Source: Burkholderiales bacterium (lineage in GTDB: Bacteria; Pseudomonadota; Gammaproteobacteria; Burkholderiales; SG8-39). From it: a DNA stretch of 64,000 bases. Of the stretch, positions 755-30,853 are shown in pieces (positions within the stretch are counted from its first letter, which is position 1; the number at the start of each line of letters is the position of its first letter). Where the stretch lies: NCBI GenBank assembly GCA_036559525.1, contig DATBSZ010000273.1, positions 240 to 64,239 on the forward strand, written 5' to 3'. The notes beneath the pieces were generated by a model. The model saw nothing but the letters and a program-made list of their open reading frames with translations, was not told the DNA's origin and did no database searches. The position numbers were made by a program, and so were the translations under genes.

Positions 755-796
755 GGCATTGCCAAGCAGAATCCTCGGCAAGCATGAATCTTGCGC

Positions 797-1375
797 ATGG
801 ATAAGCCGCTCATTCTTTCGCTCGACGCGCACGGCGTCCCGCACCGCTGGATCAGCTGGCAGCAGGCGTGCTTCTACTACGCGAAGGACCTGGTCGCGTG
901 GACGCTCGGCGAGGAGAAGTTCACCTACTACGGCGGCATCTGCCGCCGTACCGGCGAGCGCTCGAGCATCACCGCGCATTCCATCGTCGCGATCAAGGGC
1001 AAGGCGCTGGCGGCGAAAGGCTTCAACCAGGTGCCGCCGCTCAACAACCGGGAACTGTTCCGCCGCGACCGCCACATGTGCGCCTATTGCGGCGGCGAGT
1101 TCAGCTATTTCCGCCTGACGCGCGACCACATCACGCCGCTGTCGCGCGGCGGCCGCGATACGTGGATGAACGTGGTTACCACCTGCCGGCACTGCAACGG
1201 CCACAAGCGCAACCGCCTGCCGCAGGAATGCGGCCTCGAGCTGCTCTATGCGCCGTACGTGCCGAACAAGGCGGAGTACCTGATCCTCACCAACCGCCGC
1301 ATCCTCGCCGACCAGATGGAGTTCCTGAAGCAGCATGTCGCGAGCCACTCGCGGCTTGTCCTAGCCCCTGCGTAG
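797..1375 (+). CDS. HNH endonuclease
   Basis: ORF 791-1375. HNH/zinc motif CAYCGG...RLTRDHITPLSRGG...NVVTTCRHCNGHK. The start is either TTG 791 or ATG 797. Confidence 0.85.
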   Translation: MDKPLILSLDAHGVPHRWISWQQACFYYAKDLVAWTLGEEKFTYYGGICRRTGERSSITAHSIVAIKGKALAAKGFNQVPPLNNRELFRRDRHMCAYCGGEFSYFRLTRDHITPLSRGGRDTWMNVVTTCRHCNGHKRNRLPQECGLELLYAPYVPNKAEYLILTNRRILADQMEFLKQHVASHSRLVLAPA

Positions 1376-13078: not shown

Positions 13079-14415
13079 AGCCGGTCATCGCATTGGTGGG
13101 CCGGCCCAACGTCGGCAAGTCCACCCTCTTTAACCGCCTCACGCGCAGCCGCGACGCGATCGTGCACGACGTGCCCGGCGTGACGCGCGACCGCCACTAC
13201 GGCGAAGGACGGCTCGGCTCGCGCGCGTTCATCGCCATCGACACCGGCGGCTTCGAGCCACGCTCGCCCCAGGGCATCTTCGTCCAGATGGCGCGCCAGG
13301 CCGAGCAGGCGATGGTGGAGGCCGACGCGATCGTTTTCCTGGTCGACGGGCGCGCCGGCCTTACGCCTTCTGACCGGGAAATTGCACAAAAATTACGCAA
13401 ACTGAAAACCCCGGCGTTTGTCGCCGTCAACAAGACCGAGGGGATGCAATCCGACATCGCGGTCGCCGAGTTCCACGAGCTCGGCCTGGGCGCGCCCGCC
13501 GCGATCTCGGGCGCGCACGGCGAGGGCGTGCGCGAATTGATGGATCTCGTCCTGGAGAAATTTCCGGAGGACACCGAACCGGACGAAGAAGAAAAAGGCC
13601 ATCCCCGAGTCGCGGTGGTCGGCCGCCCCAACGTCGGCAAGTCGACGCTCGTCAACGCGCTGGTCGGCGAGGAGCGCGTCATCGCCTTCGACCAGCCCGG
13701 CACCACGCGCGACCCGATCGAGGTGCCGTTCGAGCGCGGCGGGCGGCGCTACACGCTGATCGACACCGCGGGGCTGCGCCGGCGCGGCAAGACCGGCGAG
13801 CCGGTCGAATTCTTCTCGATCGTCAAGGCGCTGCAGGCAATCGAGGCGGCGAACGTCGCGATCCTGCTCCTCGACGCCTCCACCGGCATCACCGAGCAGG
13901 ACGCGCACGTCGCGGGCTACGTGCTCGAGCGAGGGCGCGCGGTGGTGCTGGCGGTGAACAAGTGGGACGCAGCCGACAAGGAGCTGCGCGAGCGGATGAA
14001 GCAGGAGCTCGCCTGGAAGCTCGAGTTCCTCGGTTTCGCGGAAACGCATTTCGTCTCCGCGACGAAAGGCAAGGGCCTCGGCCCGTTGATGCGCTCGGTC
14101 GACGCCGCGCACGGCGCGGCGATGGCCAGGCTCGCCACGCCCAAGCTCACGCGCGCCATGATCGCCGCGGTCGAGCGCCAGTCGCCGCCGAAGACCGGGC
14201 GGGTGCGTCCCAAGCTGCGCTACGCGCACCAGGGCGGCATCAACCCGCCGCGCATCATCATCCACGGCAACGCGCTCGACCGCGTGCCGGAGACCTACAA
14301 GCGCTACCTGGAAAACTACTTCAGGAATGCCTTCAAGCTGGCCGGGACTCCGCTGCGGATCGAGTTCCGCACCGGGCGCAACCCCTACGTCAAGTCCCGC
14401 GCCGCGCGAGGATGA
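13075..14415 (+). CDS. der: Ribosome biogenesis GTPase Der (EngA)
   Basis: GTG 13075 overlaps the bamB stop (GTGA). Two G domains: [14 protein letters not shown] and [16 protein letters not shown]-like C-terminus. Confidence 0.93.
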
Positions 14416-15124
14416 GGCTGCGCACGAGCGCCGGCAGGTCGAAGCCGCGCGAGAGGAGCTTCCAGAAGATCATGCGCGCGATGCGCGCCGTGTCGACGGT
14501 CGAGCGATAGTGGCTTGGGCGCGCGTCCGGCGGATAGAGGGCGGCGATCGGCACGGCGGCGCTACGCACGCCGGCGCGGCCGGCTTCGATCAGGATCTCG
14601 CTCTCGAAGGCGAAGCGGGCGTTGGGGCCGTGGAAGAGCTGGATTTCGCGCAGGACGCTGGCGGGATACAGGCGAAACCCGGACTGGCTGTCGGCGACGG
14701 GGAAGCCCGCCGCCCAGGCCACCCAGAAGTTGGCGAAGCGGTTGCCGAGGTAGCGCAAAGGCGGCACTTTCTCCCGGTCCCAGAGCCGCGCGCCGATGAT
14801 GATGCGGTCCGGGTGCGCGCGCGCCGCGTCGATGAGGCGCGGGATGTCCTCGGGGTCGTGCTGCGCGTCGCCGTCGAGCGTGACCACGGCGTCCGCGCCG
14901 TCGGCCAGCGCGAGCGCGAAGCCGCGCCACAGGCTGGCGCCCTTGCCGTAGTTGACCGGGTTCGAGATGACCGTGACGCGCAGGCCGTCGAGCGCGGCGG
15001 CGGTGGCGTCGGTCGAGCCGTCGTTCACCACGATCACGTCGGGCACGAGGCGCAGCGTCCGGGTGGCGACCTCGCGGATGGTCGGTGCCTCGTTGTAGGC
15101 GGGAATGACGGCGACGAGCTTCAT
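14390..15124 (-). CDS. Family 2 glycosyltransferase (ApeJ-like, last gene of the polyene/lipid operon)
   Basis: The internal ATG at 15124 of ORF 14390-15538 gives [16 protein letters not shown]...VNDGSTD...[10 protein letters not shown] (GT-A fold with DxD motif). ATGA overlap with fabG. Confidence 0.8.
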
Positions 15125-15840
15125 GTCATGCCGCCATCGATCGAGATGACCTGGCCGGAGATGTAGCCGGCTTCGTCGGAGGCAAGGAAGCCCACCAGCG
15201 CCGCGACCTCGTCGGGCTGGCCGGCGCGCTTCATCGGCACCAGCGCGTCGATGGCGCTCTTGGTGAACGCCTGTGCGGTCATGGGCGAGTCGATGATCCC
15301 CGGCGCCACCGCGTTCACCGTGACGCCGCGCGAGGCGAGCTCGAGCGCGAGCGAGCGCGTGGCGCCGTGCAGGCCGGACTTCGCCGCGGCGTAGTTCGCC
15401 TGTCCGCGGTTGCCGCGCAGCGCGGCGACCGAGGACAGGCTGACGATGCGTCCCCAGCGCGTGCCGATCATCGGCAGCAGGAGCGGCCGCGTGACGTTGA
15501 AGAACCCGTGGAGCGAGACGTCGACCACGCTCCTCCACTGCTCTCCCGACATCCCGGCCATCGGCGCATCGGCATGCACTCCCGCGTTGTTCACCACGAT
15601 CTGCACCGGCCCGTCGGCGAGCAGGTGCTCGAGCGCAGCCGCTGTTGCTTTCTCATCTGTGACATCAAAAGAAATCGCGTCGGCGGCACCGCCCGCAGCG
15701 CGGATATTCTGCGCCACGCGCTCGGCTTCGGCCAAATTGCGGTTCGCGTGCACGGCGACGTGCCGCCCCGCGGCGGCGAGCCGGCGGCAGATCGCGGCGC
15801 CGATGGTCCCGCTGCCGCCGGTCACGAGGGCCCTGATCAT
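15121..15840 (-). CDS. fabG: 3-oxoacyl-ACP reductase (SDR, ApeQ-like)
   Basis: MIRALVTGGSGTIGAAI (TGxxxGxG), NNAG, and YAAAKSG (YxxxK). Confidence 0.88.
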   Translation of the reverse strand: MIRALVTGGSGTIGAAICRRLAAAGRHVAVHANRNLAEAERVAQNIRAAGGAADAISFDVTDEKATAAALEHLLADGPVQIVVNNAGVHADAPMAGMSGEQWRSVVDVSLHGFFNVTRPLLLPMIGTRWGRIVSLSSVAALRGNRGQANYAAAKSGLHGATRSLALELASRGVTVNAVAPGIIDSPMTAQAFTKSAIDALVPMKRAGQPDEVAALVGFLASDEAGYISGQVISIDGGMT

Positions 15841-16265
15841 CCGGAGAGCACGACGGCGGCCTTGCCGCGCAGGATCTCGACGCCGCCGCAGGACAGCGCA
15901 AACCGGTAGAGCGCCCGCTCGCCGTCGCCGGCAAGCCGCTCGGCATCGATTACCAGCTCGTGCTCGAGATCGTCCAGGCGAGCGGCGCTGCAGACGACGT
16001 CGCTGACGCTCGCGAGATAGCCCGCGTGCGGCGTTTCCCGGACCGCGGCGGACAAGCGCCCATGCACCGCCATGGCTTGCGCCGCGTACTCGATGCCGCA
16101 CAGCGCCGGCAGCTCGGCCCCGGCGCGCAGCGGATTGTCGCCGTCGCGGTGGCTGCGGCTGGTGCATCGAATCGCAGCTTCGCTCCATTCCAATACCTCG
16201 TGCAGCAGACACATCCGCCCCGCATGGGGAATCATGCCCGCGATCTCTGCCTTGCTTACGGGCAT
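15837..16265 (-). CDS. Hotdog-fold dehydratase (ApeP-like)
   Basis: 142-aa product MPVSKAEIAGMIPHAGRMCLLHEVLEW... Size and position between the KR and KS/CLF genes match aryl-polyene clusters. Confidence 0.6.
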   Translation of the reverse strand: MPVSKAEIAGMIPHAGRMCLLHEVLEWSEAAIRCTSRSHRDGDNPLRAGAELPALCGIEYAAQAMAVHGRLSAAVRETPHAGYLASVSDVVCSAARLDDLEHELVIDAERLAGDGERALYRFALSCGGVEILRGKAAVVLSG

Positions 16266-17053
16266 GGCGTGACTCGCGCGCGCAGCTGCGTCCCCGCGAC
16301 ATAGTTCAGGACGACGTCCCCGGCGACGCCGCGCGCGAGCACGGCGAGCAAGGCGAGGCTGCGCGCCGCCGGGTTGCCTTGCCTCGCGGCCTCGAGGGCC
16401 GGGTCGGCGAGCCGGGTCTCGGCGCCATCCGCAGGCCGAAGCTCGAGGTCGATGGCGGCGACGCTGTGGCGCGTTTCTTCGGGAACCAGGATGAGAGCGA
16501 CGCCGAACACGCTCGCGATCGGGCGCGCGGCGTGCAAAGGCTCGGGATACGGCTGGTCGTGGCTGACGAGGGCCACGGGCCTGCGGTCCACGGCGACCTG
16601 GGCCGCGCACTCGAGGAGGCCCGCGGCGAAGCTGGCGTCGAAGCAGCACAGGCTGGTCGAGGGCTCGCGCGAGCGGGTCGCGATGCTCCAGTAGCCGGCC
16701 GCGGCGTTGTGCACCGAGTTCATGAATTTCGTGGGCGACACTTCGCGCTCGGCGGTGGCCAGCGTCTCGCACATCTCGTGCAGGATCTCGCCGTCGCTCG
16801 ACGAGGAGGTGAAGACGGTTGGCGTGACTGCCGCATCGTGTCCGGCGGCCGCGAAGGCCTCGCGGCCCACTGCCAGCGCGAGCTTGACCGGGATGCCGGC
16901 GCGGCGCCGCTCGGCCGGCGGCAGCAGCTCGCTCGGGGGAATCGCCGTGCGCGCGGGGCGATAGGGCTCGGCGCCCGCGAGCACCGCGCGAGCGGCCGGC
17001 CAGCCGCTCAGGCCGGGGCCGAGGACGCCGATGCCTTCAATGAACGCGCGCAT
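16256..17053 (-). CDS. Beta-ketoacyl synthase-like chain-length-factor subunit (no catalytic Cys-His-His)
   Basis: 265 aa and KS-like (…FMNSVHNAAAGYWSIA…). I found no ACS or HGTxT catalytic motifs. It overlaps the KS gene by 17 nt. Confidence 0.65.
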   Translation of the reverse strand: MRAFIEGIGVLGPGLSGWPAARAVLAGAEPYRPARTAIPPSELLPPAERRRAGIPVKLALAVGREAFAAAGHDAAVTPTVFTSSSSDGEILHEMCETLATAEREVSPTKFMNSVHNAAAGYWSIATRSREPSTSLCCFDASFAAGLLECAAQVAVDRRPVALVSHDQPYPEPLHAARPIASVFGVALILVPEETRHSVAAIDLELRPADGAETRLADPALEAARQGNPAARSLALLAVLARGVAGDVVLNYVAGTQLRARVTPCP

Positions 17054-18236
17054 CGCCGATGACGAGGCTGCAGTTGCTGCCGCCGAAGCCGAAGGAATTG
17101 GTGAGCACGCGCCGCAGGCGCGCCTCCCGGGTCTCGAGAACGTAGTTGCTCTTCAGCGCAGGGTCGACGTTGCGGGTGTGGGCGCTGCCCGGAAGGAGGC
17201 CGTGCCGCAGGGCCAGCGTCGAAATGATCGCCTCGGTGATCCCGGCGGCGCCCAGCAGGTGCCCGGTAGCGCCCTTGGTCGAGCTGGCGGGCGTTTTCCG
17301 ACCGAACAGATCGACGACGGCCGTGTCCTCGGCGGCGTCGTTCGAGGGCGTCGCCGTGCCGTGGAGATTGATGTAGTCGATGTCGGCCGCACCGAGCCGC
17401 GCCGAGGCGAGCGCGCGCTGCATGGCCAGCTTCGCGCCCGCGCCCTCGGGGTGCGGCGCCGACATGTGGTACGCATCGGAGCTTTCGCCCACGCCGAGGA
17501 GTATCGGGGCGTCGGCGCTCGCGCCGGCATGCGGCTTCTCGAGCAGGGCAAAGCCCGCGCCTTCTCCGAGCGAGATGCCATCGCGCTCGCGGTCGAACGG
17601 CCGGCACGGGCGGCGCGAAGTGAGCTCGAGGGAGCGAAAGCCGTACAGCGTCGTGAGGCACAGCGAATCCGCGCCGCCGACCACCGCGGCATCGCAGGCG
17701 CCGGCCGCGATCATGCGCGCGGCGTTGCCGAAGACCTTGGCGGTGGAGGAGCAAGCGGAGGAGACGACGAACGAAGGTCCCGCCAGGCCGAGATAGCGCC
17801 CGACGAAATCGCCGAGCGAGTAGGTGTTGGCGGTCGCGTGGTAGCGGAAGCCGCGCGGCAGGGACCCGCTCGCCGGATCGCGCCGCTGGTAGGCGAGCTC
17901 GGCCTCGAGGATGCCGGAGGTGCTGGTGCCGATGAACACACCGATGCGGCTCGCGCCATAGCGGCCGCGCGCCGCCGCTACGGCAGCGGCGAAGCCGTCC
18001 GCCTCGAGGGCCATCTGCGCAATGCGGTTGCTGCGGCAGTCGTAAGCTTCGAGGCCGCGCCGGATGCCCGCGTCCTTGAGACCAGGCACGCTTCCGACCC
18101 AGGTGTCGATCGAAGTAGTCTCGAATTCGCAAGGCGTGAGCCCGGAGCGCTTCGTGCGCAGCGCATCGAGCACCGCCGCGCTCCCGGTGCCGAGGCAGTT
18201 GACGATGGAGAACCTCGTGATCAGGAGAGGCTGCAT
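17037..18236 (-). CDS. Beta-ketoacyl-ACP synthase (FabF/FabB-like KS)
   Basis: 399 aa from ATG 18236. Catalytic Cys in VVSSACSSTAKVF. His motifs INLHGTATPSND and KGATGHLLGAAG. Confidence 0.88.
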   Translation of the reverse strand: MQPLLITRFSIVNCLGTGSAAVLDALRTKRSGLTPCEFETTSIDTWVGSVPGLKDAGIRRGLEAYDCRSNRIAQMALEADGFAAAVAAARGRYGASRIGVFIGTSTSGILEAELAYQRRDPASGSLPRGFRYHATANTYSLGDFVGRYLGLAGPSFVVSSACSSTAKVFGNAARMIAAGACDAAVVGGADSLCLTTLYGFRSLELTSRRPCRPFDRERDGISLGEGAGFALLEKPHAGASADAPILLGVGESSDAYHMSAPHPEGAGAKLAMQRALASARLGAADIDYINLHGTATPSNDAAEDTAVVDLFGRKTPASSTKGATGHLLGAAGITEAIISTLALRHGLLPGSAHTRNVDPALKSNYVLETREARLRRVLTNSFGFGGSNCSLVIGDARVH

Positions 18237-18985
18237 GCCGCGGGAAGGGAAACGCACTTGAGGCCGCGCGCGGCGAGCTGCTCGAGCAGGGCGGGCAGGA
18301 CGGCGAGCGAAAGCGGCTCGCTGTCGTGCAGCAGGAGCACGTCGCCCGCCGCGAGCCCGGCGGTGAGGCGCCCGAGCACCCTGGCGGGGTCGCGCGCAAC
18401 CGTGTCCAGGCCGCGGCGCGTCCACGAGACGTAGCGCAGTCCCATCGGCGGGAGGACGAGGCCGAGGAACGGGCTGCGGAAGCCGGCCGGCGCGCGGAAG
18501 AACTGCGGCGCTTGCCCGGTGATGGCGGCGACGGTGGCCTGCGCGCGCTCGACCTCGCGCCGCAGGAGGGAGATGCCGTAGAACGCGAAGGCGTGAGAAT
18601 GGCGGTCGCTGTGGTTCTCGACGCTGTGGCCGCGGCGCACGATCTCGCGCACGATCTCCGGATGCGCCCGCGCCCTTTCCCCGACGCAGAAAAAGCTCGC
18701 CTTGGCCTGGTAGCGCTCGAGGAGCTCGAGGACGCGAGGTGTCAGCTCCGGATGCGGGCCGTCGTCGAACGTCAGGCACACGTGCCGGTGCGCGGCGGCG
18801 GCGGCCGGGAGCCGGCTCAGGTTCGGCCCGAGCAGGCGGCCGCGCACGTGAAACACTCCGGCGGCGATCACGAGATGATTGGCGATGAGCGCCGCGCCAA
18901 CCCAGGGCCACATCCCGGGCGCGAGCGCGAGGACGATCACGCCGGCTGCGTGCACCAGGATGGAAACGCGGATCACGGGCGTCAT
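18221..18985 (-). CDS. Polysaccharide deacetylase (NodB homology) with N-terminal membrane segments
   Basis: Hydrophobic N-terminus, then LTFDDGPHPE and GHSVENHSDRH, which are NodB motifs. Confidence 0.8.
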   Translation of the reverse strand: MTPVIRVSILVHAAGVIVLALAPGMWPWVGAALIANHLVIAAGVFHVRGRLLGPNLSRLPAAAAAHRHVCLTFDDGPHPELTPRVLELLERYQAKASFFCVGERARAHPEIVREIVRRGHSVENHSDRHSHAFAFYGISLLRREVERAQATVAAITGQAPQFFRAPAGFRSPFLGLVLPPMGLRYVSWTRRGLDTVARDPARVLGRLTAGLAAGDVLLLHDSEPLSLAVLPALLEQLAARGLKCVSLPAACSLS

Positions 18986-19551
18986 GCCGGCTTCGGGAAG
19001 AGCGGCTTTTCAAGCACGGCCCGCCACAATTGAATCCAGGTCGGCCAATCGTGCGCGCCCGGCATCCTGATCACGCGCTCGGCCGGCAGCTGGCGGGCAA
19101 GCATCTCGCTCGCCGCCGCGTAGCGGTCGCCGGTACCGAAGCCGAGATAGGCGGCGGGAAACCACTTTGCGTCGGCCGGTTCGAGCGCGTCGGGGCCGCG
19201 CGAGCCGAGAAACGGCGCGAGCAGGATCATCGCCTCGAGCTCGGCCGCGCGCCGGCGCGCAAGAGAGATGCAGCCATAGCCGCCGAGCGAGATCCCCATG
19301 AGCCAGATGCGAGCGTAGCCGTTGGCGCGCATCGGCGCGATGACGTCTGCCGCAAGGCGCTCGCCGACGCTGCCCTCGAGGTAGTAGTCCGCGTCGGCAT
19401 CCATGACCGCGACATCGAGCGGCGATCCCCGCTCGCGAAGCGCGGCCACGAAGCCCCGGTCCACCAGGTCTTGCGCGCAAGCCTTGGCGGGCGGCAGCAT
19501 GACGAGCAGATTGCCGCTCGCGCCCGGCGCGCGGTCATGAAGCGCGCGCAT
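18982..19551 (-). CDS. Small alpha/beta-hydrolase-like protein
   Basis: 189 aa with a nucleophile elbow, WLMGISLGG (GxSxG). ATGA overlap with the deacetylase gene. Confidence 0.6.
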   Translation of the reverse strand: MRALHDRAPGASGNLLVMLPPAKACAQDLVDRGFVAALRERGSPLDVAVMDADADYYLEGSVGERLAADVIAPMRANGYARIWLMGISLGGYGCISLARRRAAELEAMILLAPFLGSRGPDALEPADAKWFPAAYLGFGTGDRYAAASEMLARQLPAERVIRMPGAHDWPTWIQLWRAVLEKPLFPKPA

Positions 19552-21868
19552 AGGCCCCTTCGGCGCCGGATGGCCTGCTCAGGATCGCTGAGAACACCAG
19601 CGCCATCGCCGCGCCGAGGCCCACGGTGGAGCCGATGGCGTTCAGCACCGGCACGGAGGAGAACGCGAGCAGGCCGAACCCGATCACGGTGGTGACGGCG
19701 GCGAACACGAGGGACAGGATGGTGCGGCCGCGGTCCTGGACAGGCGCCGCGCGATCGAAGAACAGCGAATAATTCGACCCGACCGCCACCACGAGCAGCA
19801 GCCCGACGAGGTGGAAAATGGAAAGCTCGTGGCCGCCCAGCGCGAGCAGCCCGCAGGTCACGAGCGCCGCGGCGGCGAGCGGCGCCAGCACGTCGAACAC
19901 GCGCCGCGGCGAGCGCAGCGCAGCGAGCAGGAGCGCGACGATCGCGGCGGCGCCCAGCAGCGAATTGATCTGCGCCTCGCGCAGATAGCCGCGATAGAGC
20001 TCGTCCAATTCCTGCCGCAGGTCGAGAAGCACGCCGGCCGAAGTTCCCGCCACGGCGCCGGCGATGGCCTTGGCGTCACTCACCCCGCGCAGCGGCAGCA
20101 TCGCCGCCCAGCCAGTGGGCCGCTTCACGAGCAGCGCATCCAGCCTGAGCGCGAGGCTCGTACCCTGCAGGCTCGCACGGTCGAGCAGCGGCATGGTGCG
20201 CGCGGCGCCGACGTCGCGCACGAAGGGCTCGAACACGTTCGGGCGGAAGGCGAGCCCTTTCTGAGCCTCCTGCAGGTTTTGCCGCAGCGTCGGCGGCGGC
20301 GGTAGCGCCGCCTGGCGCTCGCGTTGCGCCGCTTCGCTCGGCAGGTAGGCGGCGGGCGAATCGAAGCCCTGCAGCCAGCCTTTGGCCACCGCATCGCGCA
20401 ATGCCAGCGCGGCCCGCTCGGCTGCCTGCAGCGCGGCCTGCTCGTCCGCGGCGTGCACGACGACGAGATAGCGCGGGTCCGGGGCGCCGAGGTCCTGGCG
20501 CAGCTCGCGGTCGAGCGCTTGCTCGCGCGGCGAGATCGGGCTCAAGCTCGCAGCCGAGCCGCTCCACAGGGGCTGCGGGCGCAGCAGGAGGAATGCGGCT
20601 GCGGCCGCGATCAAGACAACCAGCGGATAGCGCAGCCGGGGCGCCGCGCGCGCGAGCGCCATGACCCTCGGCGCGAATCCCGCTACGGCGGCGACGGCGA
20701 ATCCGCGCGGCAGCCACGCAGGCAGGGCCCACCGCGTAACGGCGGCGGCGACGACGAGCCCGGCAATGGAGAACAGGCCGAGCTGCGCAAGACCGGTGAA
20801 GCCTGAAAAGAGCATTGCGCTGAACCCGCAGATCGACGTAGCCAGCCCGAGCCGCAACGTCGGCCAGATGCGCTCGAAAGTGCTCTGCGCCGTCGCGCCG
20901 GGCGCGTTCTGCGTGAAGAGATAGATCGCGTAGTCCACGGCCTCGCCGATCAGCGTCACGCCGAAAGCGAGCGTGATGCCGTGCACCGAGCCGAACGCGA
21001 GGCTGACGGCGGCGACGCCGGCGAGCGCGCCGCTCGCCACCGGCAGCAGCCCGAGGCCGAGGACGCGCACCGAGCGGTAAAGCGCGATCAGCATGGCGGC
21101 GATGAGCACCGTCGCGATGAGCGAGAACCGCCACGCGTCGGCGCGGATCTTGTCGCGGCTCGCGACCGAAAAGACGCCCGGCCCGGTCACCTGCAGCCGG
21201 GCGCCGGCGCCGGCGGCCGCGGCCGCGAACGAATCCTGGATCAGTCCCAGCGCGCGCTTTTGCGCATCGATGTCCGAGGCCGCGGCGCGTGTCTGCGCGA
21301 CGAGGAGCGCGCGGCGGCTATCCTCCGAGAACCATACGCCCCCGTGCAGCCGCGGGCGCGTCGCCGGCGCGAGCTCTTCGAGCAGGCGCAGCAGCTCGCC
21401 GCCGGGATCCGAAGCCGACAGTCGCTGCAACAGCACGCCCGCAGGCGACGCGAGTTGTGCGAGAAGCTCTTCCAGGCTCGCCCGCAGGCCCGCCGCCGAG
21501 AAGCGCTCGGCCTTGACCGCGGGGCTAAGAAGGTAGCGGTGGCGCCAGACGAGATCGCGGTCCTTCTCGAAGCCCGCCTCCTCGCCGTTGTTCACCGCGG
21601 CGAATTCGCGCGAGGCGCGCAGTGAAGCCGCGAGGCGCTTGCTGACCTCCGCGAGCCGATCGGGGGAGTCCCCCTGCACCCCGATCAGGGTCAGCCGCGA
21701 CACCACGCCGTCGCGCAGCTGCTCGACCAGCGCCTGCTGGACGGGGGAGGGCGATCGCGGCAGAAAGGCCGACAGGTCGGTGCTGAACTCGGTGCGCGCG
21801 ATGACCGCGGCGCACGCCGCGGCGCCTGCGATCCACGCCGCAAGCGCCCAGCGCGCGGCCGGGCTCAC
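19535..21868 (-). CDS. MMPL/RND-superfamily exporter (ApeM-like)
   Basis: GTG 21868 overlaps the upstream stop (GTGA). About 777 aa with two blocks of multiple hydrophobic helices separated by soluble loops, as in MMPL transporters. Confidence 0.8.
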   Translation of the reverse strand: MSPAARWALAAWIAGAAACAAVIARTEFSTDLSAFLPRSPSPVQQALVEQLRDGVVSRLTLIGVQGDSPDRLAEVSKRLAASLRASREFAAVNNGEEAGFEKDRDLVWRHRYLLSPAVKAERFSAAGLRASLEELLAQLASPAGVLLQRLSASDPGGELLRLLEELAPATRPRLHGGVWFSEDSRRALLVAQTRAAASDIDAQKRALGLIQDSFAAAAAGAGARLQVTGPGVFSVASRDKIRADAWRFSLIATVLIAAMLIALYRSVRVLGLGLLPVASGALAGVAAVSLAFGSVHGITLAFGVTLIGEAVDYAIYLFTQNAPGATAQSTFERIWPTLRLGLATSICGFSAMLFSGFTGLAQLGLFSIAGLVVAAAVTRWALPAWLPRGFAVAAVAGFAPRVMALARAAPRLRYPLVVLIAAAAAFLLLRPQPLWSGSAASLSPISPREQALDRELRQDLGAPDPRYLVVVHAADEQAALQAAERAALALRDAVAKGWLQGFDSPAAYLPSEAAQRERQAALPPPPTLRQNLQEAQKGLAFRPNVFEPFVRDVGAARTMPLLDRASLQGTSLALRLDALLVKRPTGWAAMLPLRGVSDAKAIAGAVAGTSAGVLLDLRQELDELYRGYLREAQINSLLGAAAIVALLLAALRSPRRVFDVLAPLAAAALVTCGLLALGGHELSIFHLVGLLLVVAVGSNYSLFFDRAAPVQDRGRTILSLVFAAVTTVIGFGLLAFSSVPVLNAIGSTVGLGAAMALVFSAILSRPSGAEGAYARAS

Positions 21869-22461
21869 CCGGCCTCCCGGGTAACCTCGGTCACCGAGCG
21901 GTCGCCGCCGGCTTCGTCGATCTCGATCCGGTTCACCCAGGTGCCGCTGCCGCCGACGCGGATCTCGCTCGCCGCCTGCCGCATGCGCGGCTCCTTCGGC
22001 CTGAGCCGCAGGCGCCACGCGCCCGCGTCACCCTCCAGGCGCACTTCGTAGAATCGCTGCAAGGTCGCGAGGTCCCCGTTGAGCGTGGAACGCATGCTTT
22101 CCACGAAGGCCCACAGTACCGGGTGCTCCTGCAGCGGGAAAGTGCGGCGCTGTCCCTTGTCCTTGCGCTCGACGATCAGTCGGTCGCCCTCCAGGATCAG
22201 GCTCTCCTGCCGTGGCGACGTCATGTGCTTCTCGAGCCTGCCCGGCGCGACGTAAACCAGGGTGCCCGAGGATTCGAGCGGCGCGTTGAGCATCGCGAAG
22301 TGCTTGCGCTCGACGAACCTGCCGCGCGCGCTCTTGACCTGCGCGAGGTCTTTCATCAGCCGCTCGAGCACGAGCGTCGGCTTGTCCTGCGCTTGGGCGA
22401 GCGCGGGCGCAAGGCACCCCAGGGCCAGGACCACAGCCGCGAGCCTATGCCCAGTAGTCAT
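21865..22461 (-). CDS. LolA-like outer-membrane lipoprotein carrier family protein (ApeL-like)
   Basis: Signal peptide MTTGHRLAAVVLALGCLAPALAQA, then ARGRFVERKHFAMLNAPLESSGTLVYVAPGRLEKH, typical of LolA-like proteins in these clusters. Confidence 0.75.
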   Translation of the reverse strand: MTTGHRLAAVVLALGCLAPALAQAQDKPTLVLERLMKDLAQVKSARGRFVERKHFAMLNAPLESSGTLVYVAPGRLEKHMTSPRQESLILEGDRLIVERKDKGQRRTFPLQEHPVLWAFVESMRSTLNGDLATLQRFYEVRLEGDAGAWRLRLRPKEPRMRQAASEIRVGGSGTWVNRIEIDEAGGDRSVTEVTREAG

Positions 22462-23359
22462 AGAAGTTGAACCAGTTGTACGGGGCCTCGCGGCAGTGGT
22501 GCTCCAGGCGCTTCGCGTAGCGCTCGACCCAGGGCCGCACCGACTCTTCGCGGTTGCGCCGCTCGAGCGGAATTGCATCGGCGAAGGTCTCCAAGTGGAT
22601 CTCGTAACGCCGGCCGCCACGGTAGATGCCAAAGAACAGGACCACCGGCGCCTGCACCAGCCCCGCGAGCAGCAGCGGGCCGAGCGGAAAGCGGGCTTCG
22701 CCGCCCAGGAACTCGCAGCGGTAGGTGCGCTCGCTCCTCCATGCCCGGTCGCCGAGTATGCCGACGATCTCTCCGCGCGCGAGGCATTCGTGCACGCGCA
22801 GCAGCGCGTCCGGGCTGCCGAGCGGGATTACGCGCGCCTCGGCGCCCGGCGCAAGCGGGCGCAGCACGCTGTTCAGCTTCCCGGCGTTGTCCACGTACAT
22901 CAGGATGTTGATCGGCGGCACGCCTTCGCCGGGTCCGCACGCCCGCAGCACCTCGAAGCTGCCGAGGTGCGATCCGAGAAGGATGCAGCCGCGGCCGTCG
23001 CGCAGCAGCGCCTGCGTTTGCAAGCCAGCGTGGATTTGCACGTCGTAGGAAGAGATCCTGCCCGCCAGGAAATAGACGCGATCCTGGATGGTCGAGGCGA
23101 AGGTGTAGTAGTGGCGAAACACGTCGCCGAGCGTCGCGCGCCGGCCGAGAACGCGCCGCAGGTAGCCTGCCGAAGCGCTGCGCGCGTGCGACGAGAACAG
23201 AACGAAGTAGGCGCAGATCGGAACCAGCAGGATCCGGCCGAGCGGTCGGCCGAGCGCCAGCATCAGCCAGACCGCCAGGCGCATCGCGAGCACGCTGCCG
23301 CGCTCGGGGTGCTCGACCCAGTCCGGAGGCGCAGCTACTCGGCCGGGCTGGCGGAGCAT
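22445..23359 (-). CDS. LpxL/HtrB-type lipid acyltransferase (ApeD-like)
   Basis: HX4E motif in LLGSHLGSFEV. The C-terminus PYNWFNFYDYW is typical of this family. The start is uncertain (ATG 23359 or 23401). Confidence 0.7.
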   Translation of the reverse strand: MLRQPGRVAAPPDWVEHPERGSVLAMRLAVWLMLALGRPLGRILLVPICAYFVLFSSHARSASAGYLRRVLGRRATLGDVFRHYYTFASTIQDRVYFLAGRISSYDVQIHAGLQTQALLRDGRGCILLGSHLGSFEVLRACGPGEGVPPINILMYVDNAGKLNSVLRPLAPGAEARVIPLGSPDALLRVHECLARGEIVGILGDRAWRSERTYRCEFLGGEARFPLGPLLLAGLVQAPVVLFFGIYRGGRRYEIHLETFADAIPLERRNREESVRPWVERYAKRLEHHCREAPYNWFNFYDYWA

Positions 23360-23640
23360 TCGACTTCGCCCACGAGCACGGTGTTGCCCTTTACCGCGCA
23401 CTCGAACTTGATGGAGCCCAAGCCGTCGCTGAACTCGATGAGAACCTCGTCGCCGGGCCGCGCGGGAGAGGGAAACTTGGCGCGCCGGATGCGATACGGC
23501 GCGAGGCTTACGCCGAGGTCGGCTTCGATCAGCCGCACCGCCTCGCTTAGCAGGACCGCGCCCGGGATGACCGGGTTGCCGGGAAAGTGGCCTTGCGCGG
23601 CGGGATGCTCAGCGCTCAGCCGCTGCCGAATTGTCGCCAC
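23335..23640 (-). CDS. FabZ/FabA-like hotdog dehydratase (ApeI-like)
   Basis: 101 aa with the HFPGNPVIPGAVLL active-site motif. Confidence 0.75.
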   Translation of the reverse strand: MATIRQRLSAEHPAAQGHFPGNPVIPGAVLLSEAVRLIEADLGVSLAPYRIRRAKFPSPARPGDEVLIEFSDGLGSIKFECAVKGNTVLVGEVECSASPAE

Positions 23641-23641
23641 G

Positions 23642-24934
23642 TCAGCCGACTTTCGCCACGAGGCTGTCGAGCTCGGCGCGCGGCAGCTTTCCCGTCTCCG
23701 TGCGCGGCAGCGACTCCACGATGCACAGCGGCCGCGGAAGGAACGCGGGATCGATACGCTGCCGCAGCGCCGCCAGGATGGTCTCGGCGGTGAGCCCCGG
23801 GGCGACCGCGAAAGCGGCCAGCCGGGTGACGCCGCCCGGGTCGTCGGCTGGCACGACGAACGCGCCGTCGCGCACGCCGGGAATCGAGGTCAGGTGATGG
23901 TTGAGGCTGGCGAGCGAGGTGCGCTTGCCGGCGACGTTGACGAGATCCGCGGTCCTGCCATGCAGCAAAAAGCGGCCGCGGGTCTGCAGCTCGATGACGT
24001 CGCTCAGCAGGAACTCCATGGGCGCCTGCCCGCCCTTCACCCAGGTGCCTTTCTCGTCCTGGCGCATCGTGAGGTGGGGGAAGAGCTGCCATTCGGCCGA
24101 TTCGCTCGGGCGCCGGGTCGCCACCAGTCCCGCCTCCGTGCAGCCGTAAATCTCGTGCAGCGGAGCGCCCAGGCGCGCCTCGGCTTCGACAGCGAGCGGC
24201 GTCGGCAGCGGCGCGGTGGAGGACAGGAGGAAATCCAGTGACGGCAGGGCGGTTGCGTCCGCCAGCAGCGCACGCAGGTGTACCGGCGTGGTCACCAGGC
24301 CGCGCGGCCTTGGCAGCGCCTCGAGCTCGGCGCAGATATCCGCCGGAAAAAACGGGCGCCCGCCATGCAGCACGAGCGCGCCCTGGAGCGGCAGGAGCAC
24401 CGTGGATTCCAGGCCGTACAGGTGCTGCGGCGGCACGGTGCCGAGGATCGCCATGCCCGGGAAGTCGCGGATGCGCAGGCGCTCGATTTCGGCGATCGCC
24501 GTCGCCACCAGAGCGCCCCAGGACTTGGGATGCGGCACGGGATCGCCGGTCGAGCCGGAGGTAAATACGATGGCGGCGATGCGCTCCTCCGGTATCGCCG
24601 GGACCGCGGGCGACGGGACGCCGCGTCCACCGTCGGCCGCTGCGAAGTCGTCGTCGAGGCAATAGAGATCCGGGTAGTCGCGAACCAGCCTCTCGATCAC
24701 GTCGGGCGTGTGGGTGGGCGGCATGAGGCTGATCTGGCCGCGCACCAGCGCCGCCGCAAAGCCGGCGGTGAAGCGAAAACGGTCCGTGCAGAGGTTGATG
24801 ACGTATCGGCGATCCGGAAGCGCCTCGGCGAGGCGCGCGACCTCGGCGAGAAATTCGCCGGCGCGCACGAGCTCGCCTTGCCGCTGCGCGAAAAGCGCAT
24901 CCGGATCGTGGCGAACGAGGGGCTGAGCGGCCAT
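23642..24934 (-). CDS. AMP-dependent synthetase/ligase (aryl/acyl-ACP or -CoA ligase, ApeH/XanA2-like)
   Basis: ATG 24934. Adenylation motifs FTSGSTGDPVPHPK, EIYGCTEAG and PRTETGKLPR. Confidence 0.85.
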   Translation of the reverse strand: MAAQPLVRHDPDALFAQRQGELVRAGEFLAEVARLAEALPDRRYVINLCTDRFRFTAGFAAALVRGQISLMPPTHTPDVIERLVRDYPDLYCLDDDFAAADGGRGVPSPAVPAIPEERIAAIVFTSGSTGDPVPHPKSWGALVATAIAEIERLRIRDFPGMAILGTVPPQHLYGLESTVLLPLQGALVLHGGRPFFPADICAELEALPRPRGLVTTPVHLRALLADATALPSLDFLLSSTAPLPTPLAVEAEARLGAPLHEIYGCTEAGLVATRRPSESAEWQLFPHLTMRQDEKGTWVKGGQAPMEFLLSDVIELQTRGRFLLHGRTADLVNVAGKRTSLASLNHHLTSIPGVRDGAFVVPADDPGGVTRLAAFAVAPGLTAETILAALRQRIDPAFLPRPLCIVESLPRTETGKLPRAELDSLVAKVG

Positions 24935-24944
24935 CGGCGACGCC

Positions 24945-25610
24945 TCAGCGCGACAGCAAGCTCGACGCGCGGTCCTTCGCGTAAGCCTGTATCGCGGTGG
25001 CAATCGACGACTGCGGCAGGTGGCGGTAGCGGATCACGCGGTACAGGTAGTCGAGCGCGAACATCAGCCCGACGAGCGGGAAGCTGAGCACGTTGATGAA
25101 CAACGACCAGCTCTCGAGCGATCCATAGGCGAGGAGAAGCGCGGAGCCCGCGAGCTGCGCCGCGAAGAACACGCACCACGCGGCCGTGAGCCTGCGCGTG
25201 TAGCGTTCCATGGCCGGCGGCAACGTAGCGCCGTGCGCTTGGCGCGCGAGGCGCGCCAAGCGGGTAATGATGGCTTCCCGCCCGGGGAGCAGCGTGCGGC
25301 CAAACAGCCACAGCATGAAGGAATACGCCGCGGCGTGAGGCACGCCGTAGAGCACCGTGGTTCCCAGCCCCGTGCCGTGCGCGAGCAGCCACGTGGCGCC
25401 GGCGGCGCCGGCGACGATGAGGAGCCACAGCATCCGCTTCTGCGAGCGCGCGATGAGCCAGCAACCCAGCGCCGCCATCGGCGCCATCACCAGGAGGGTT
25501 CGCGCCGGATCGCCGGCGCTGCCGGCGAGCCCGACATGGATCAGGATCGGGTAGCCGACGATGGCGGCGGCGGCCAGCACCTTCCAGGCGATGGCGGCCG
25601 GGCGCGCCAT
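24945..25610 (-). CDS. Polytopic membrane protein of unknown function (ApeG-like position)
   Basis: 221 aa with about 6 hydrophobic segments. Encoded between the ACP and ligase genes with junctions of 1-10 nt. Confidence 0.6.
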   Translation of the reverse strand: MARPAAIAWKVLAAAAIVGYPILIHVGLAGSAGDPARTLLVMAPMAALGCWLIARSQKRMLWLLIVAGAAGATWLLAHGTGLGTTVLYGVPHAAAYSFMLWLFGRTLLPGREAIITRLARLARQAHGATLPPAMERYTRRLTAAWCVFFAAQLAGSALLLAYGSLESWSLFINVLSFPLVGLMFALDYLYRVIRYRHLPQSSIATAIQAYAKDRASSLLSR

Positions 25611-25611
25611 T

Positions 25612-25911
25612 TCAGGGCGCCCGGTGCGCCTGGATGTGCTGGCTGAGACTGCGCAGGGAACTGAAGATGCTTGCGTTGTTCTTGTTGTCGGACCGCAGCT
25701 TGACGCCGTAGGCCTTGGAGATCGCGAGCGCGATCTCCAGCACGTCGATCGAGTCGAGGCCCAGCCCGTCGCCGTACAAGGGCGCGGTCGGGCTGACTTC
25801 CGCCGGCTCCATTTCCAGCTTGAGGGTGGCGACGATGACGCGGGCCAATTCCAGCTCTTCCGCGGTCAGCGCGTCCGTCTGCGGAGCAATCTCTGTGGTG
25901 ACGATGCTCAT
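25612..25911 (-). CDS. Acyl carrier protein
   Basis: Phosphopantetheine attachment motif GLGLDSIDVLE. ATG 25911 is preferred because of the GGAG Shine-Dalgarno. Confidence 0.85.
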   Translation of the reverse strand: MSIVTTEIAPQTDALTAEELELARVIVATLKLEMEPAEVSPTAPLYGDGLGLDSIDVLEIALAISKAYGVKLRSDNKNNASIFSSLRSLSQHIQAHRAP

Positions 25912-25952
25912 GTTTCGCTCCAATGGCCGTTGGGCTCTTTGATCGGATTATA

Positions 25953-25976
25953 CGGGCGATTCAGCGGGCGATTCAG
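25953..25976. repeat. Perfect tandem duplication CGGGCGATTCAG x2 in the divergent ACP/halogenase promoter region
   Basis: Read directly: 25953-25964 and 25965-25976 are identical. Confidence 0.9.
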
Positions 25977-26011
25977 AGTGCGCCTACAATACCAAAGCCA
26001 AAGCAGATCAT

Positions 26012-27295
26012 ATGGTTAATCACCGCTGCGACGTGCTGGTGATCGGCGCGGGTCCTGCCGGGTCGACCGTGGCTGCGCTGCTCGCCGAACGCGGGCGCGA
26101 GGTCGTGATCCTGGAAAAAGAGCGCCACCCGCGCTTTCACATCGGCGAGTCGCTGCTGCCGCTCAACCTGCCGCTGTTCGAGCGGCTGGGGGTCGCCGCG
26201 GAGATCCAGCGCATCGGCATGCCGAAGCTCGGCGCGGAGTTCGTCTCTCCCTGGCACAAGCAGCCGGTGACCTTCGACTTTGCCCACGCGCTGGACAAAT
26301 CCTTTCCTTCCGCTTACCAGGTGCGCCGCTCCGAATTCGATGAGATCCTCTTCAAGAACGCGGTGCGCAAGGGGGCACGCGCGCTCGAGGCCTGCCGCGT
26401 GACGACCGTGGAATTCACGCCGCAGGGCGCCGCGGTGGCTGCGCGGCTGGAAGACGGAGCCGAGCAGCGCTGGGACACCCGGTTCGTAGTGGACGCGTCC
26501 GGCCGCGACACTTTTCTCGCCAGCAAGATGGGGATCAAGCGGCGCAACCGGAAGCACAACAGCGCGGCCATCTACGGTCACTTCACCGGCGCGAAGCGGC
26601 TGCCGGGCAAGGCCGAAGGAAACCTGACCGTGTTCTGGTTCGAGCATGGCTGGCAGTGGTTCATTCCGCTTGCCGACGGCACGACCAGCGTCGGCGCGGT
26701 GTGCTGGCCGTACTACATGAAGACGCGCAAGACCGGCACCGACCAGTTCTTCCTCGACACGATTGCGCTGTGCCCCGCGCTCGCGGAACGGCTGCGCGAC
26801 GCGCAGCTCACGGCGCCGGTCACCGCCACCGGCAACTACTCCTACGTTGCCGAGCGCACCATGGGCCGAAACTACGTGATGCTGGGCGATGCCTATACCT
26901 TCATCGACCCGGTGTTCTCCACCGGCGTGCTGCTCGCGATGCAAAGCGCCTTCGCCGGCGCGGACACCATCGAAACCTGCCTCGACCATCCGGCGAAGGC
27001 CGGCGCCGCGCTTCGGCGCTTCGACGCGATGATGCGGCGCGGCCCCGGGGTCTTCTCCTGGCTCATCTACCGGGTCACGACGCCGGCATTGCGGGAGCTG
27101 TTCATGAAGCCGTCCAACCGGTTCCGCGTGCAGGAGTCGCTGATTTCCGTGCTGGCCGGCGATATCTACCGCGACACGCCGGTGCGCGCGAGGATGCTTC
27201 TGTTCCGTGCCATCTACTACCTGAAGAGCCTGTCCCTGCTGCGCCAGAGCGTGTCGGCCTGGCTCAGGCGCCGGCGCGCGATTCAGTCAGCGTAG
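26012..27295 (+). CDS. FAD-dependent halogenase-like oxidoreductase
   Basis: GxGxxG motif (VLVIGAGPAGS) and a WxWxIP motif (GWQWFIPL, nt 26651-26668), which is diagnostic of flavin-dependent halogenases. Confidence 0.75.
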   Translation: MVNHRCDVLVIGAGPAGSTVAALLAERGREVVILEKERHPRFHIGESLLPLNLPLFERLGVAAEIQRIGMPKLGAEFVSPWHKQPVTFDFAHALDKSFPSAYQVRRSEFDEILFKNAVRKGARALEACRVTTVEFTPQGAAVAARLEDGAEQRWDTRFVVDASGRDTFLASKMGIKRRNRKHNSAAIYGHFTGAKRLPGKAEGNLTVFWFEHGWQWFIPLADGTTSVGAVCWPYYMKTRKTGTDQFFLDTIALCPALAERLRDAQLTAPVTATGNYSYVAERTMGRNYVMLGDAYTFIDPVFSTGVLLAMQSAFAGADTIETCLDHPAKAGAALRRFDAMMRRGPGVFSWLIYRVTTPALRELFMKPSNRFRVQESLISVLAGDIYRDTPVRARMLLFRAIYYLKSLSLLRQSVSAWLRRRRAIQSA

Positions 27296-27348
27296 CCACG
27301 ATCGCCTGAAGTAGACAGTGGCCACATAAGTGTGCGAGGATGTGGTCA

Positions 27349-27888
27349 ATGGCAACATATCATCACGGCGATCTGAGGACAGCGGTGCTGGCCGCGGCCG
27401 GCAAGCTGATCGAGAAAGAGGGGCTCGGCGGGCTCAGCGTCCGCGAAGCCGCGCGGCGGGCGGGGGTGTCGCATAACGCCCCTTACCGCCACTTCCCGGA
27501 CCGCGACGCGCTCCTCGCCGCGCTCGCGGCGCAAGGGTTCAGCCAGCTGGGGAAGGCGCTGGAAGGCCGTTCCGGACGCGAGCTCGGCGAAGCCTATGTG
27601 CGCTTCGCCCTGGGGCATCCGCAGCGGTTCCGGCTCATGTTCGGCGGGCAGCTCGCGCTCGACCGGTACCCGGAATTACGCACGCAGGCCGAGGCGACGC
27701 ACGGGCGCCTGACGGCGGCGTTCGCCGGACTGGGCGCCGAAGCGAAGTTCGCTGCCGCAGCCGCCTGGTCGCTGGTGCACGGCCTCGCGCAGTTGATTCT
27801 CGACGGGCACTTCGAGAACGATGAGGGTTTCGTGACGAAAGTGATCGGCGCGATCCGCTTCGCCGTGGGACCTCAGCGCTCGGCGTAG
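27349..27888 (+). CDS. TetR/AcrR family transcriptional regulator
   Basis: MATYHHGDLRTAVL...LSVREAARRAGVSHNAPYRHF (HTH). The start is 27340 or 27349. Confidence 0.85.
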   Translation: MATYHHGDLRTAVLAAAGKLIEKEGLGGLSVREAARRAGVSHNAPYRHFPDRDALLAALAAQGFSQLGKALEGRSGRELGEAYVRFALGHPQRFRLMFGGQLALDRYPELRTQAEATHGRLTAAFAGLGAEAKFAAAAAWSLVHGLAQLILDGHFENDEGFVTKVIGAIRFAVGPQRSA

Positions 27889-30830: not shown

Positions 30831-30853
30831 CGGGAGCGATGCTAGTTTAAGAA

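Follow-up and report, generated by a model that had tools for sequence, protein, structure and literature searches.

In this study, we analysed a stretch of 64,000 nucleotides (nt) of a Burkholderiales bacterium (contig DATBSZ010000273.1, assembly GCA_036559525.1; the whole stretch is called the window hereafter) with a focus on a block of biosynthetic genes at positions 14390 to 27888. As judged from its sequence, this locus very probably encodes a working pathway for an aryl-polyene (APE) pigment lipid and belongs to the xanthomonadin/arcuflavin subtype. This reading is carried by the gene content, the gene order, the intact catalytic motifs and the homology to characterised arc and ape components. 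A preliminary description of the same DNA had placed the block in the Ape/xanthomonadin paradigm, and this placement was borne out: Ape counterparts were found for 11 of the 14 operon proteins, the gene order equals that of the arc genes of Azoarcus, and the ketosynthase (KS), the acyl carrier protein (ACP) and the FabG-type reductase pass cluster-specific cut-offs. By its gene content and order, the locus reads as a trimmed, rearranged member of a known and extremely widespread cluster family.

The GC content of the window is about 67–71%, because of which the raw lists of open reading frames (ORFs) were crowded with spurious frames, and the frames were resolved by analysis of GC at third codon positions (GC3) together with start-codon inspection. 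Fourteen intact genes run on the minus strand from 25911 down to 14390, from the ACP gene to a family 2 glycosyltransferase (GT2) gene, and a plus-strand pair, encoding a halogenase (26012–27295) and a TetR-family regulator (27340–27888), lies on the other side of the ACP start. The 14-gene operon had been proposed in the preliminary description and was confirmed by the GC3 frames, the start codons and JGI gene calls; the latter, made on metagenome contigs with an identical halogenase, agree on the ACP (99 amino acids, aa), the membrane protein (221 aa), the ligase (430 aa) and the first dehydratase subunit (DH1, 101 aa). All domain labels given earlier were reproduced by Pfam and NCBIfam, with extra evidence needed for the second dehydratase subunit (DH2) and the alpha/beta hydrolase. 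The earlier statement that nearly every junction overlaps was essentially right and slightly overstated. Overlaps were seen at ten of the 13 internal junctions, four of 4 nt (GTGA at LolA/MMPL; ATGA at hydrolase/NodB and at each end of the ketoreductase (KR) gene, that is, DH2/KR and KR/GT2) and six of 10–25 nt, and gaps of 1–10 nt separate the other three (ACP/membrane protein, membrane protein/ligase and ligase/DH1). The halogenase and TetR genes had been called divergent; both indeed lie on the strand opposite to the ACP gene, but the TetR gene is located downstream of the halogenase on the same strand. Both ends of the cluster overlap convergent coding sequence, the GT2 gene with der by 26 nt (14390–14415) and the TetR gene with an MFS/spermidine-synthase-like gene by 16 nt (27873–27888), and there is therefore no room for terminators. 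A promoter/terminator consensus scan gave no match above shuffle expectation.

When one genome per species was scanned, more than 583 relatives of the KS were found, the most similar of them (74% identity) in metagenome-assembled genomes of Burkholderiales. The synteny counts given below come from tblastn of all window proteins against the best 80 of these loci, and the E. coli comparison comes from BLASTP of the window proteins against the ape cluster of E. coli CFT073.

The KS (17037–18236; this and all following operon genes on the minus strand) is of the ApeO/ArcK type. Its Pfam/NCBIfam E-values go down to 5e-158, and it scored 526 bits on NF006618 (cut-off 407) versus 245 bits on FabF. 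It is 44% identical to ApeO and 35% to ApeR, matches 7F28_B (2e-71) and 6QSP_A (ApeO; 1e-67) in the PDB, and its translation holds the ACSS, YHMS and LHGT motifs with a Cys-His-His triad. It is the only KS in the cluster, which holds no ApeR-like second KS. Its neighbour (16256–17053) encodes a truncated chain-length-factor-like (CLF) partner of the ApeC/ArcJ/Lysobacter ORF16 type, which matched Pfam Ketoacyl-synt_2 (PF13723) at 3e-25, showed 30% identity to ApeC and found 7F28_A (7.6e-10) and 6QSP_B (ApeC; 3.8e-7) in the PDB. In the PDB, the KS and CLF come closest to highly reducing type II polyketide synthase (PKS) pairs, including ApeO:ApeC (6QSP). It was reported that the Lysobacter KS requires its truncated CLF-like partner, which is essential, and that Gln166 of this partner, ORF16, is essential as well (PMC3691225). 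In our alignment of 77 CLF sequences, no Gln reached at least 95% conservation.

The dedicated ACP (25612–25911; ApeE/XanC/ArcV type) scored 120.9 bits on NF006617 (cut-off 70) and shares 42.5% identity with ApeE; it is a single ACP, not a tandem pair, with a GLDSID phosphopantetheine site in its translation. The KR (15121–15840), a FabG-type 3-ketoacyl-ACP reductase equivalent to ApeQ/XanH/ArcH, scored 350.7 bits on NF004200 (cut-off 273), is 47% identical to ApeQ and keeps the YxxxK motif; its 260 bits on FlxB_rubin_SDR are under the curated cut-off. The putative aryl-acid adenylating/ACP ligase (AMP-ligase; 23642–24934; ApeH/ArcT/XanA2 type) carries AMP-binding and AMP-binding_C domains with the TSGSTGDP and GKLPR motifs. 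It occupies the same position as arcT and is 27% identical to ApeH, and its top NCBIfam match, at a sub-threshold score, is the 4-coumarate-CoA ligase TIGR02372.

Two genes encode hotdog dehydratase subunits. DH1 (23335–23640; ApeI/ArcS type) keeps the FabZ active-site motif HFPGNPVIPG including the catalytic His, with G17-H18-F19-P20 conserved. It gave weak FabA and FabZ matches, an identical protein has a precomputed Pfam match to ApeI-like PF22818, and the PDB matches are FabZ (2e-6) and 6QSR_A (ApeI; 0.015), the identity to ApeI being a weak 25%. DH2 (15837–16265, 142 aa) matched nothing in Pfam or NCBIfam, and BLASTP against ApeP gave no match at E≤0.01. Its sole PDB sequence match, obtained with phmmer, is ApeP (6QSR_B, E=0.016). 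Its position, that of ApeP/ArcI, is kept in 69 of the 80 related loci, and the residues P13-H14, H39, E59 and H68 are at least 95% conserved. An ApeP-like dehydratase is therefore suggested weakly by the sequence and strongly by synteny.

The genes for the sugar, lipid and export steps were also found to be intact. The GT2 (14390–15124; Glycos_transf_2, 4e-25) is predicted to be a lipid-phosphate sugar transferase of the ArnC/DPMS/GtrB type: its PDB sequence matches are ArnC, DPMS and GtrB, and its top NCBIfam match, sub-threshold, is PpgS. It aligned with residues 8–242 of ApeJ, the N-terminal half, at 33% identity, while the LpxL-family acyl-ACP-dependent acyltransferase (22445–23359; Lip_A_acyltrans, 9e-6; ArcR equivalent) aligned with residues 250–549, the C-terminal half, also at 33% (E=1e-50). 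Because these two proteins match separate halves of ApeJ, the single E. coli gene corresponds to two genes here. The H131-x4-E136 motif of the acyltransferase is at least 95% conserved. The GT2 is about 32% identical to the arcE-type GT2 of the relatives and 50% to the co-directional GT2 of a Nitrospira locus (L074), and it belongs to a different lineage from the arcE-type enzymes.

The NodB-family deacetylase (18221–18985), membrane-anchored and equivalent to ArcN, matched Polysacc_deac_1 at 5e-28, and in an alignment with 56 homologues the residues D74-D75, H125, H129, R164 and H220-D221 reach at least 95% conservation. BLASTP found no counterpart of it among the Ape proteins of E. coli CFT073. 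The alpha/beta hydrolase (18982–19551, 189 aa) holds the ArcO position and showed sub-threshold Pfam matches and weak PDB sequence matches; it has 678 database homologues, many with Hydrolase_4 or Esterase domains. In an alignment of 22 homologues, S88 (GxSxG; GISLGG), D142 and H167 are invariant. The AlphaFold (AF2) model reached a pLDDT of 90.5, and Foldseek matched it with a TM score of about 0.7 to small esterases, feruloyl esterases and acyl-protein thioesterase 1 (APT1). From the triad, the model and the structural matches, it follows that the protein is a minimal serine esterase. The copy here has lost about 30 lid residues that are found in longer homologues, and it is probably cytoplasmic. 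Assignment of this gene as ApeN (DUF3261) or as ApeK (hotdog thioesterase) was rejected, as it shows no BLAST similarity to them and is an alpha/beta hydrolase with a Ser-Asp-His triad. A missing thioesterase was noted in the Lysobacter cluster (PMC3691225), and the small hydrolase, as a candidate chain-release or transacylation enzyme, may correspond to it.

For export, the MMPL/RND exporter (19535–21868; Pfam MMPL, 8e-11; ApeM/ArcP type) is 25% identical to ApeM over 787 columns (E=3e-27), with sub-threshold HAE3 and HpnN matches. The LolA-like periplasmic carrier (21865–22461; LolA_3, 3e-18; ApeL/ArcQ type) is 23% identical to ApeL, its top NCBIfam match, sub-threshold, is LolA2_flexi, and its hydrophobic N-terminus was taken by eye as a signal sequence. 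The integral membrane protein (24945–25610; ApeG/ArcU type) gave no Pfam match, showed 33% identity to ApeG over 96 residues (E=9e-11) and keeps its position in 36 of the 80 related loci.

The retained GT2, NodB and LpxL-like genes bear on a different product, in which the polyene would be esterified to a dialkylresorcinol made from unlinked darAB genes, as in arcuflavin- or flexirubin-type pigments, and would not be anchored to a glycophospholipid. Azoarcus BH72, whose gene set is the most similar characterised one, makes such a hybrid, arcuflavin, in which xanthomonadin and dialkylresorcinol moieties come from unlinked loci, and dialkylresorcinol clusters accompany polyene clusters in several Betaproteobacteria (PMC3949708). 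The sub-threshold best matches of the LolA-like protein and the KR also include the flexirubin models LolA2_flexi and FlxB. However, the GT2, NodB and LpxL-like genes would make little sense for a simple dialkylresorcinol ester, and dialkylresorcinol genes were present in only 16 of 39 surveyed genomes (PMC3949708). The Pfam survey of the GC3-supported ORFs of the window found no further ketosynthase and no DarA-like or KS III/DarB-like gene, although no dar-specific search was made. We consider a dialkylresorcinol ester rather unlikely in this organism.

The source of the starter unit raises another alternative to an aryl polyene. An Azonexus XanB2-like query gave no tblastn match in the window, while it matched in 25 of the 80 related loci. 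The Pfam scan of the window ORFs found no FkbO/Hyg5-like domain, and the survey of the GC3-supported ORFs found no tyrosine ammonia-lyase (TAL). A search of the 64 kb by tblastn with the relatives' proteins found no methyltransferase. The closest relatives (L002, L003, L007 and L008) also lack XanB2 within 10 kb. These absences would fit a non-aromatic conjugated polyenoyl lipid, in which the ligase takes an aliphatic or other acid and the aryl-starter pathway has been lost, and the Xenorhabdus ape machinery was reported to make a non-aryl conjugated C26:5 fatty acyl chain in addition (10.1101/2020.12.19.423268). That chain, however, was attributed to ApeF (the second ACP) and ApeD (10.1101/2020.12.19.423268), neither of which is present here. 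The ligase corresponds to ArcT/ApeH by homology and synteny, with an aryl-acid (4-coumarate) ligase as its best NCBIfam match, the phenol-type halogenase is retained and conserved, and E. coli-type clusters likewise have no dedicated 4-hydroxybenzoic acid (4-HBA) synthase gene. A non-aromatic product is very unlikely in our estimate, and for the aryl-polyene reading a XanB2 gene may lie elsewhere in the genome.

The halogenase (26012–27295, plus strand; Trp_halogenase, 1e-31) is flavin-dependent and equivalent to ArcA. Its best PDB match is 3E1T (1.5e-60), followed by 5BUK, PltA, CmlS and RadH. We take 3E1T to be CndH and 5BUK to be Bmp2; these enzymes and PltA presumably act on carrier-bound phenols and pyrroles. 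Across 29 homologues, conservation is at least 95% for the GxGxxG motif, K72, W214-x-W216-x-I218-P219 and FIDPxFSxG, and the enzyme is assigned by these matches to the predicted phenol/pyrrole clade with carrier-protein substrates. Of the 80 related loci, 30 hold a homologue of the halogenase. The TetR-family protein (27340–27888, plus strand; TetR_N and TetR_C_33) has a homologue in none of the 80 loci and lies next to the halogenase on metagenome contigs from this organism, and it appears to be specific to the version of the cluster in this lineage.

The divergent intergenic region between the ACP and the halogenase (25912–26011; 100 bp, 52% GC) presumably holds promoters and operators, and the promoter scan found no sigma-70 consensus match in it. 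A perfect 12-bp tandem repeat, CGGGCGATTCAG in two copies, lies at 25953–25976, and a further copy with one mismatch lies at 27275–27286, just upstream of the TetR start; a search for the repeat in the whole window gave 4 matches against 1.06 expected. At 25920–25933, the imperfect palindrome CCAATGGCCGTTGG abuts the ACP ribosome-binding site. The CGGGCGATTCAG repeats and the CCAATGGCCGTTGG palindrome are candidate operator sites.

Taken together, these genes suggest a pathway in which the starter identity, halogenation, sugar deacetylation, acceptor lipid, role of the hydrolase and regulation are proposed from analogy. A 3-hydroxybenzoic acid (3-HBA) or 4-HBA made elsewhere in the genome would be adenylated by the AMP-ligase and loaded onto the dedicated ACP, and the KS:CLF-like heterodimer would extend the ACP-bound starter with malonyl units. 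In each cycle, the FabG-type KR would reduce the 3-keto group and the DH1:DH2 hotdog pair would dehydrate the product, so that, without enoyl reduction, a conjugated aryl polyenoyl-ACP would arise. The CndH-like halogenase may chlorinate or brominate the phenolic ring, probably on a carrier-bound substrate. The GT2 would transfer an N-acetylhexosamine (HexNAc) to a phospholipid phosphate. Membership of this enzyme in the ArnC/DPMS/GtrB family fits the sugar-1-phosphate-glycerolipid linkage of the Xenorhabdus APE lipids. The membrane-anchored NodB would strip the N-acetyl group from the sugar, the LpxL-like acyltransferase, as a detached C-terminal half of ApeJ, would move the polyenoyl chain from the ACP to the sugar, and the small alpha/beta hydrolase may release or edit esters. 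The ApeG-like protein, the MMPL/RND pump and the LolA-like carrier would then deliver the pigment lipid to the outer membrane, for a role as antioxidant and photoprotectant there, and TetR probably controls the divergent promoters. Aryl-polyene-type products protect cells from reactive oxygen species and light.

It is possible, but still doubtful, that the product is a structurally new halogenated, unmethylated aryl polyene on a de-N-acetylated hexosamine-phospholipid. If this were true, NodB (ArcN) and the minimal hydrolase (ArcO) would represent anchor-editing and chain-release steps absent from the E. coli/Xenorhabdus pathway. None of the cited papers on arc, xan and ape describes the full-length lipid made by the xanthomonadin-type subfamily. 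By itself, a further member of the family from an uncultured, Burkholderiales-like organism is of little consequence. The compact, minimal version of the cluster, with 14 genes in one operon plus the halogenase, makes a convenient heterologous expression construct, and it could define the NodB, esterase and halogenase steps, including whether the halogenase works on an ACP-bound phenol, as well as the complete lipid of this subfamily.

Several points weigh against the aryl-polyene assignment or against parts of the proposed pathway. Neither a starter-unit gene (XanB2 or TAL) nor a methyltransferase gene was found anywhere in the 64-kb window, and an aromatic starter is only assumed, because no XanB2 or TAL gene was found there. 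DH1 and DH2 resemble ApeI and ApeP only weakly in sequence (E about 0.015). To our knowledge, the role of NodB is uncharacterised in any system. It was reported that the E. coli/Xenorhabdus product retains its N-acetyl group and that ape clusters can be silent (10.1101/2020.12.19.423268), and the sequence of the window is metagenomic. Arcuflavin is non-brominated though Azoarcus encodes the halogenase homologue ArcA (PMC3949708), and the Lysobacter pigment is also non-brominated, its cluster having no halogenase gene (PMC3691225). As arcuflavin is not halogenated despite ArcA, a halogenase gene is no guarantee of a halogenated product. Finally, the likeness to the Xanthomonas and Lysobacter clusters was judged from published gene lists only (PMC6859482, PMC3691225).

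The synteny counts indicated how the locus relates to the wider family. The commonest gene order among the 80 loci is ACP, membrane protein, ligase, DH1, acyltransferase, LolA, MMPL, (hydrolase), NodB, KS, CLF, DH2 and KR, and it spans Beta-, Gamma- and Alphaproteobacteria as well as Nitrospira. For the block from NodB through the hydrolase, exporter, LolA, acyltransferase, dehydratase, ligase and membrane protein to the ACP, the order in the window is the same as in most of the 80 loci. Most relatives carry after the KR a convergent block with an arcE-type GT2, a PlsC acyltransferase (31 of 80), MipA (24 of 80), a XanB2-like chorismatase (25 of 80) and the halogenase (30 of 80). The GT2 of the window is instead co-directional with the KR and translationally coupled to it, the halogenase lies at the ACP end, unlike in the relatives, and PlsC and MipA are absent from the whole 64 kb by the Pfam survey and by tblastn with the relatives' proteins. 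An S-adenosylmethionine (SAM) methyltransferase gene lies between NodB and the KS in 24 of the 80 relatives, including the six closest, and in the window the NodB and KS genes overlap directly by 16 nt.

On the left, the cluster follows the genes accA, tilS, ndk, rlmN, rodZ, ispG, hisS, yfgM, bamB and der, and on the right, it is followed by a fused MFS/spermidine-synthase-like gene, an MFS transporter, an M48 peptidase, leuC, leuB, asd and fimV, and further on by truA, trpF, trpB, accD and folC. Both flanks are housekeeping blocks. The placement of the cluster beside der in the preliminary description was correct, as der lies at 13075–14415 and overlaps the GT2 stop by 26 nt. The gene at 27873–31064 (minus strand) encodes a fused polytopic-membrane/spermidine-synthase-like protein of about 985–1063 aa with an NF037959 match above the cut-off; it was rejected as a cluster member because it is nearby in none of the 80 relatives. 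These core-gene surroundings, the equal GC3 and the individual FAS-II-like and LpxL-like domains would fit a housekeeping fatty-acid or lipid A modification locus of FabF/FabG/FabZ/LpxL paralogues, but we regard this as extremely improbable, as the KS scored 526 bits on NF006618 versus 245 on FabF and the CLF-like partner, dedicated ACP, aryl-type ligase, halogenase, LolA/MMPL proteins and ape/arc synteny are foreign to such loci; the cluster aligns with ape and arc, and grouping with those loci, named in advance as the finding that would speak against the paradigm, was not obtained.

The suggestion that the aryl-polyene cluster forms an accessory island was weakly supported. The cluster adjoins der in none of the 80 related loci, and relatives lie on megaplasmids or chromids in Skermanella, Azospirillum, Caballeronia, Burkholderia and Variovorax; in Skermanella, genes for a Tn3 transposase and an integrase are found next to the cluster. 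This non-conserved position and the plasmid-borne relatives point to past mobility, and the variable location and the plasmid-borne relatives are weak evidence that the cluster is accessory in distribution. On the other hand, a recent mobile island was rejected: no tRNA was found in the window, no integrase or transposase was found among its GC3-supported ORFs by the Pfam survey, GC3 is 0.880 in the cluster versus 0.876 in the flanks, and the cluster ends overlap their neighbours.

In the Skermanella sp. TT6 plasmid pTT6-1 (L086), PGAP calls the gene at the ApeP position between CLF and fabG (13985–14419) a 'phosphotransferase' and leaves the ApeI-, ApeG- and LpxL-like genes 'hypothetical'. 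These labels are annotation gaps or misannotations in public records.

Other features were observed elsewhere in the window. A SAM-II riboswitch (SAM_alpha, RF00521; 39.7 bits, gathering score 36) lies at 49241–49318 on the plus strand, directly upstream of a Cys/Met-metabolism pyridoxal phosphate (PLP) enzyme gene (49348–50541), in a genome that looks betaproteobacterial. The genes accD and folC are usually adjacent in proteobacteria. Here, an ATP-dependent DNA ligase with DNA_ligase_A_N/M/C domains (about 44030–45558, plus strand, in the ORF 43477–45558) sits between accD (43154–44026) and a folC-like Mur ligase gene (45315–46796). M50 peptidase and HlyD-like domains are fused in the protein encoded at 57659–59812 (plus strand), and the gene after it (59796–64000, plus strand), which runs past the window end, encodes over 1400 aa with DUF4347, cadherin-like and Big_9 repeats; the two are likely a secreted adhesin system. 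At the left window edge, a stand-alone HNH endonuclease gene (791–1375, plus strand) lies upstream of an HhH-GPD repair glycosylase gene and accA.

Among the known systems, the flexirubin clusters of Bacteroidetes share a glycosyltransferase, LolA, an acyltransferase and an exporter with the window, with LolA2_flexi and FlxB matches below the cut-offs; these clusters have DarA/DarB and a TAL, and none of these was seen in the window. The Xanthomonas and Lysobacter clusters share the type II PKS with a KS and a truncated CLF-like partner, two dehydratases, FabG3/XanH, and XanA2 with XanC, and they also share a GT2 ('dolichyl-phosphate mannose synthase'); Xanthomonas has a halogenase as well. 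It was reported in Xanthomonas that XanB2 makes 3-HBA, that the XanA2 ligase loads the XanC ACP and that XanH/FabG3 carries out the reduction (PMC6859482). Both clusters carry xanB2 for 3-HBA, whereas the window has no xanB2. The organisation of the cluster family is known to be variable (PMC3691225).

The APE core functions, namely KS, ACP, CLF, two dehydratases, KR and transporter (10.1101/2020.12.19.423268), are all present in the window. The collinear core shared with the ape clusters of E. coli and Xenorhabdus doucetiae comprises ApeE, G, H, I, J, L, M, O, P and Q, and the proteins that pair with those of E. coli CFT073 are collinear except for the CLF and the GT2. The bifunctional ApeJ of E. 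coli is split here into the separate GT2 and acyltransferase genes. ApeR (second KS), ApeF (second ACP), ApeD, ApeK (hotdog thioesterase), ApeB (methyltransferase), ApeN (DUF3261) and ApeA belong to E. coli only, whereas the NodB deacetylase, the alpha/beta hydrolase and the halogenase belong to the window only. The GalNAc (N-acetylgalactosamine)-1-phosphate-glycerolipid anchor of the Xenorhabdus APE lipids has been solved, and ApeJ was proposed to act twice, first attaching the GalNAc and then acylating this sugar from the ACP-bound APE (10.1101/2020.12.19.423268).

Azoarcus BH72 loses its yellow pigment when arcK (KS) or arcT (ligase) is disrupted by an insertion, and ArcT was shown to adenylate 3-HBA (PMC3949708). 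The order from arcV to arcN (ACP, hypothetical protein, AMP-ligase, dehydratase, acyltransferase, LolA, exporter, hypothetical protein and deacetylase) is the order found here from 25911 to 18221, and the order from arcK to arcH (KS, N-terminal KS domain protein, dehydratase and reductase) is that from 18236 to 15121. The Azoarcus arc genes lie in two unlinked loci, whereas those of the window form one operon. Azoarcus has in addition arcB (XanB2 chorismatase), arcM (methyltransferase), arcD (PlsC acyltransferase), arcC (MipA) and the dar genes, and its regulators are the two-component pair arcW/X, in place of which the window has TetR. Azoarcus also has arcE (glycosyltransferase) and arcA (halogenase), like the window, and its published arc gene table fits the window even better than the E. 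coli ape cluster does.

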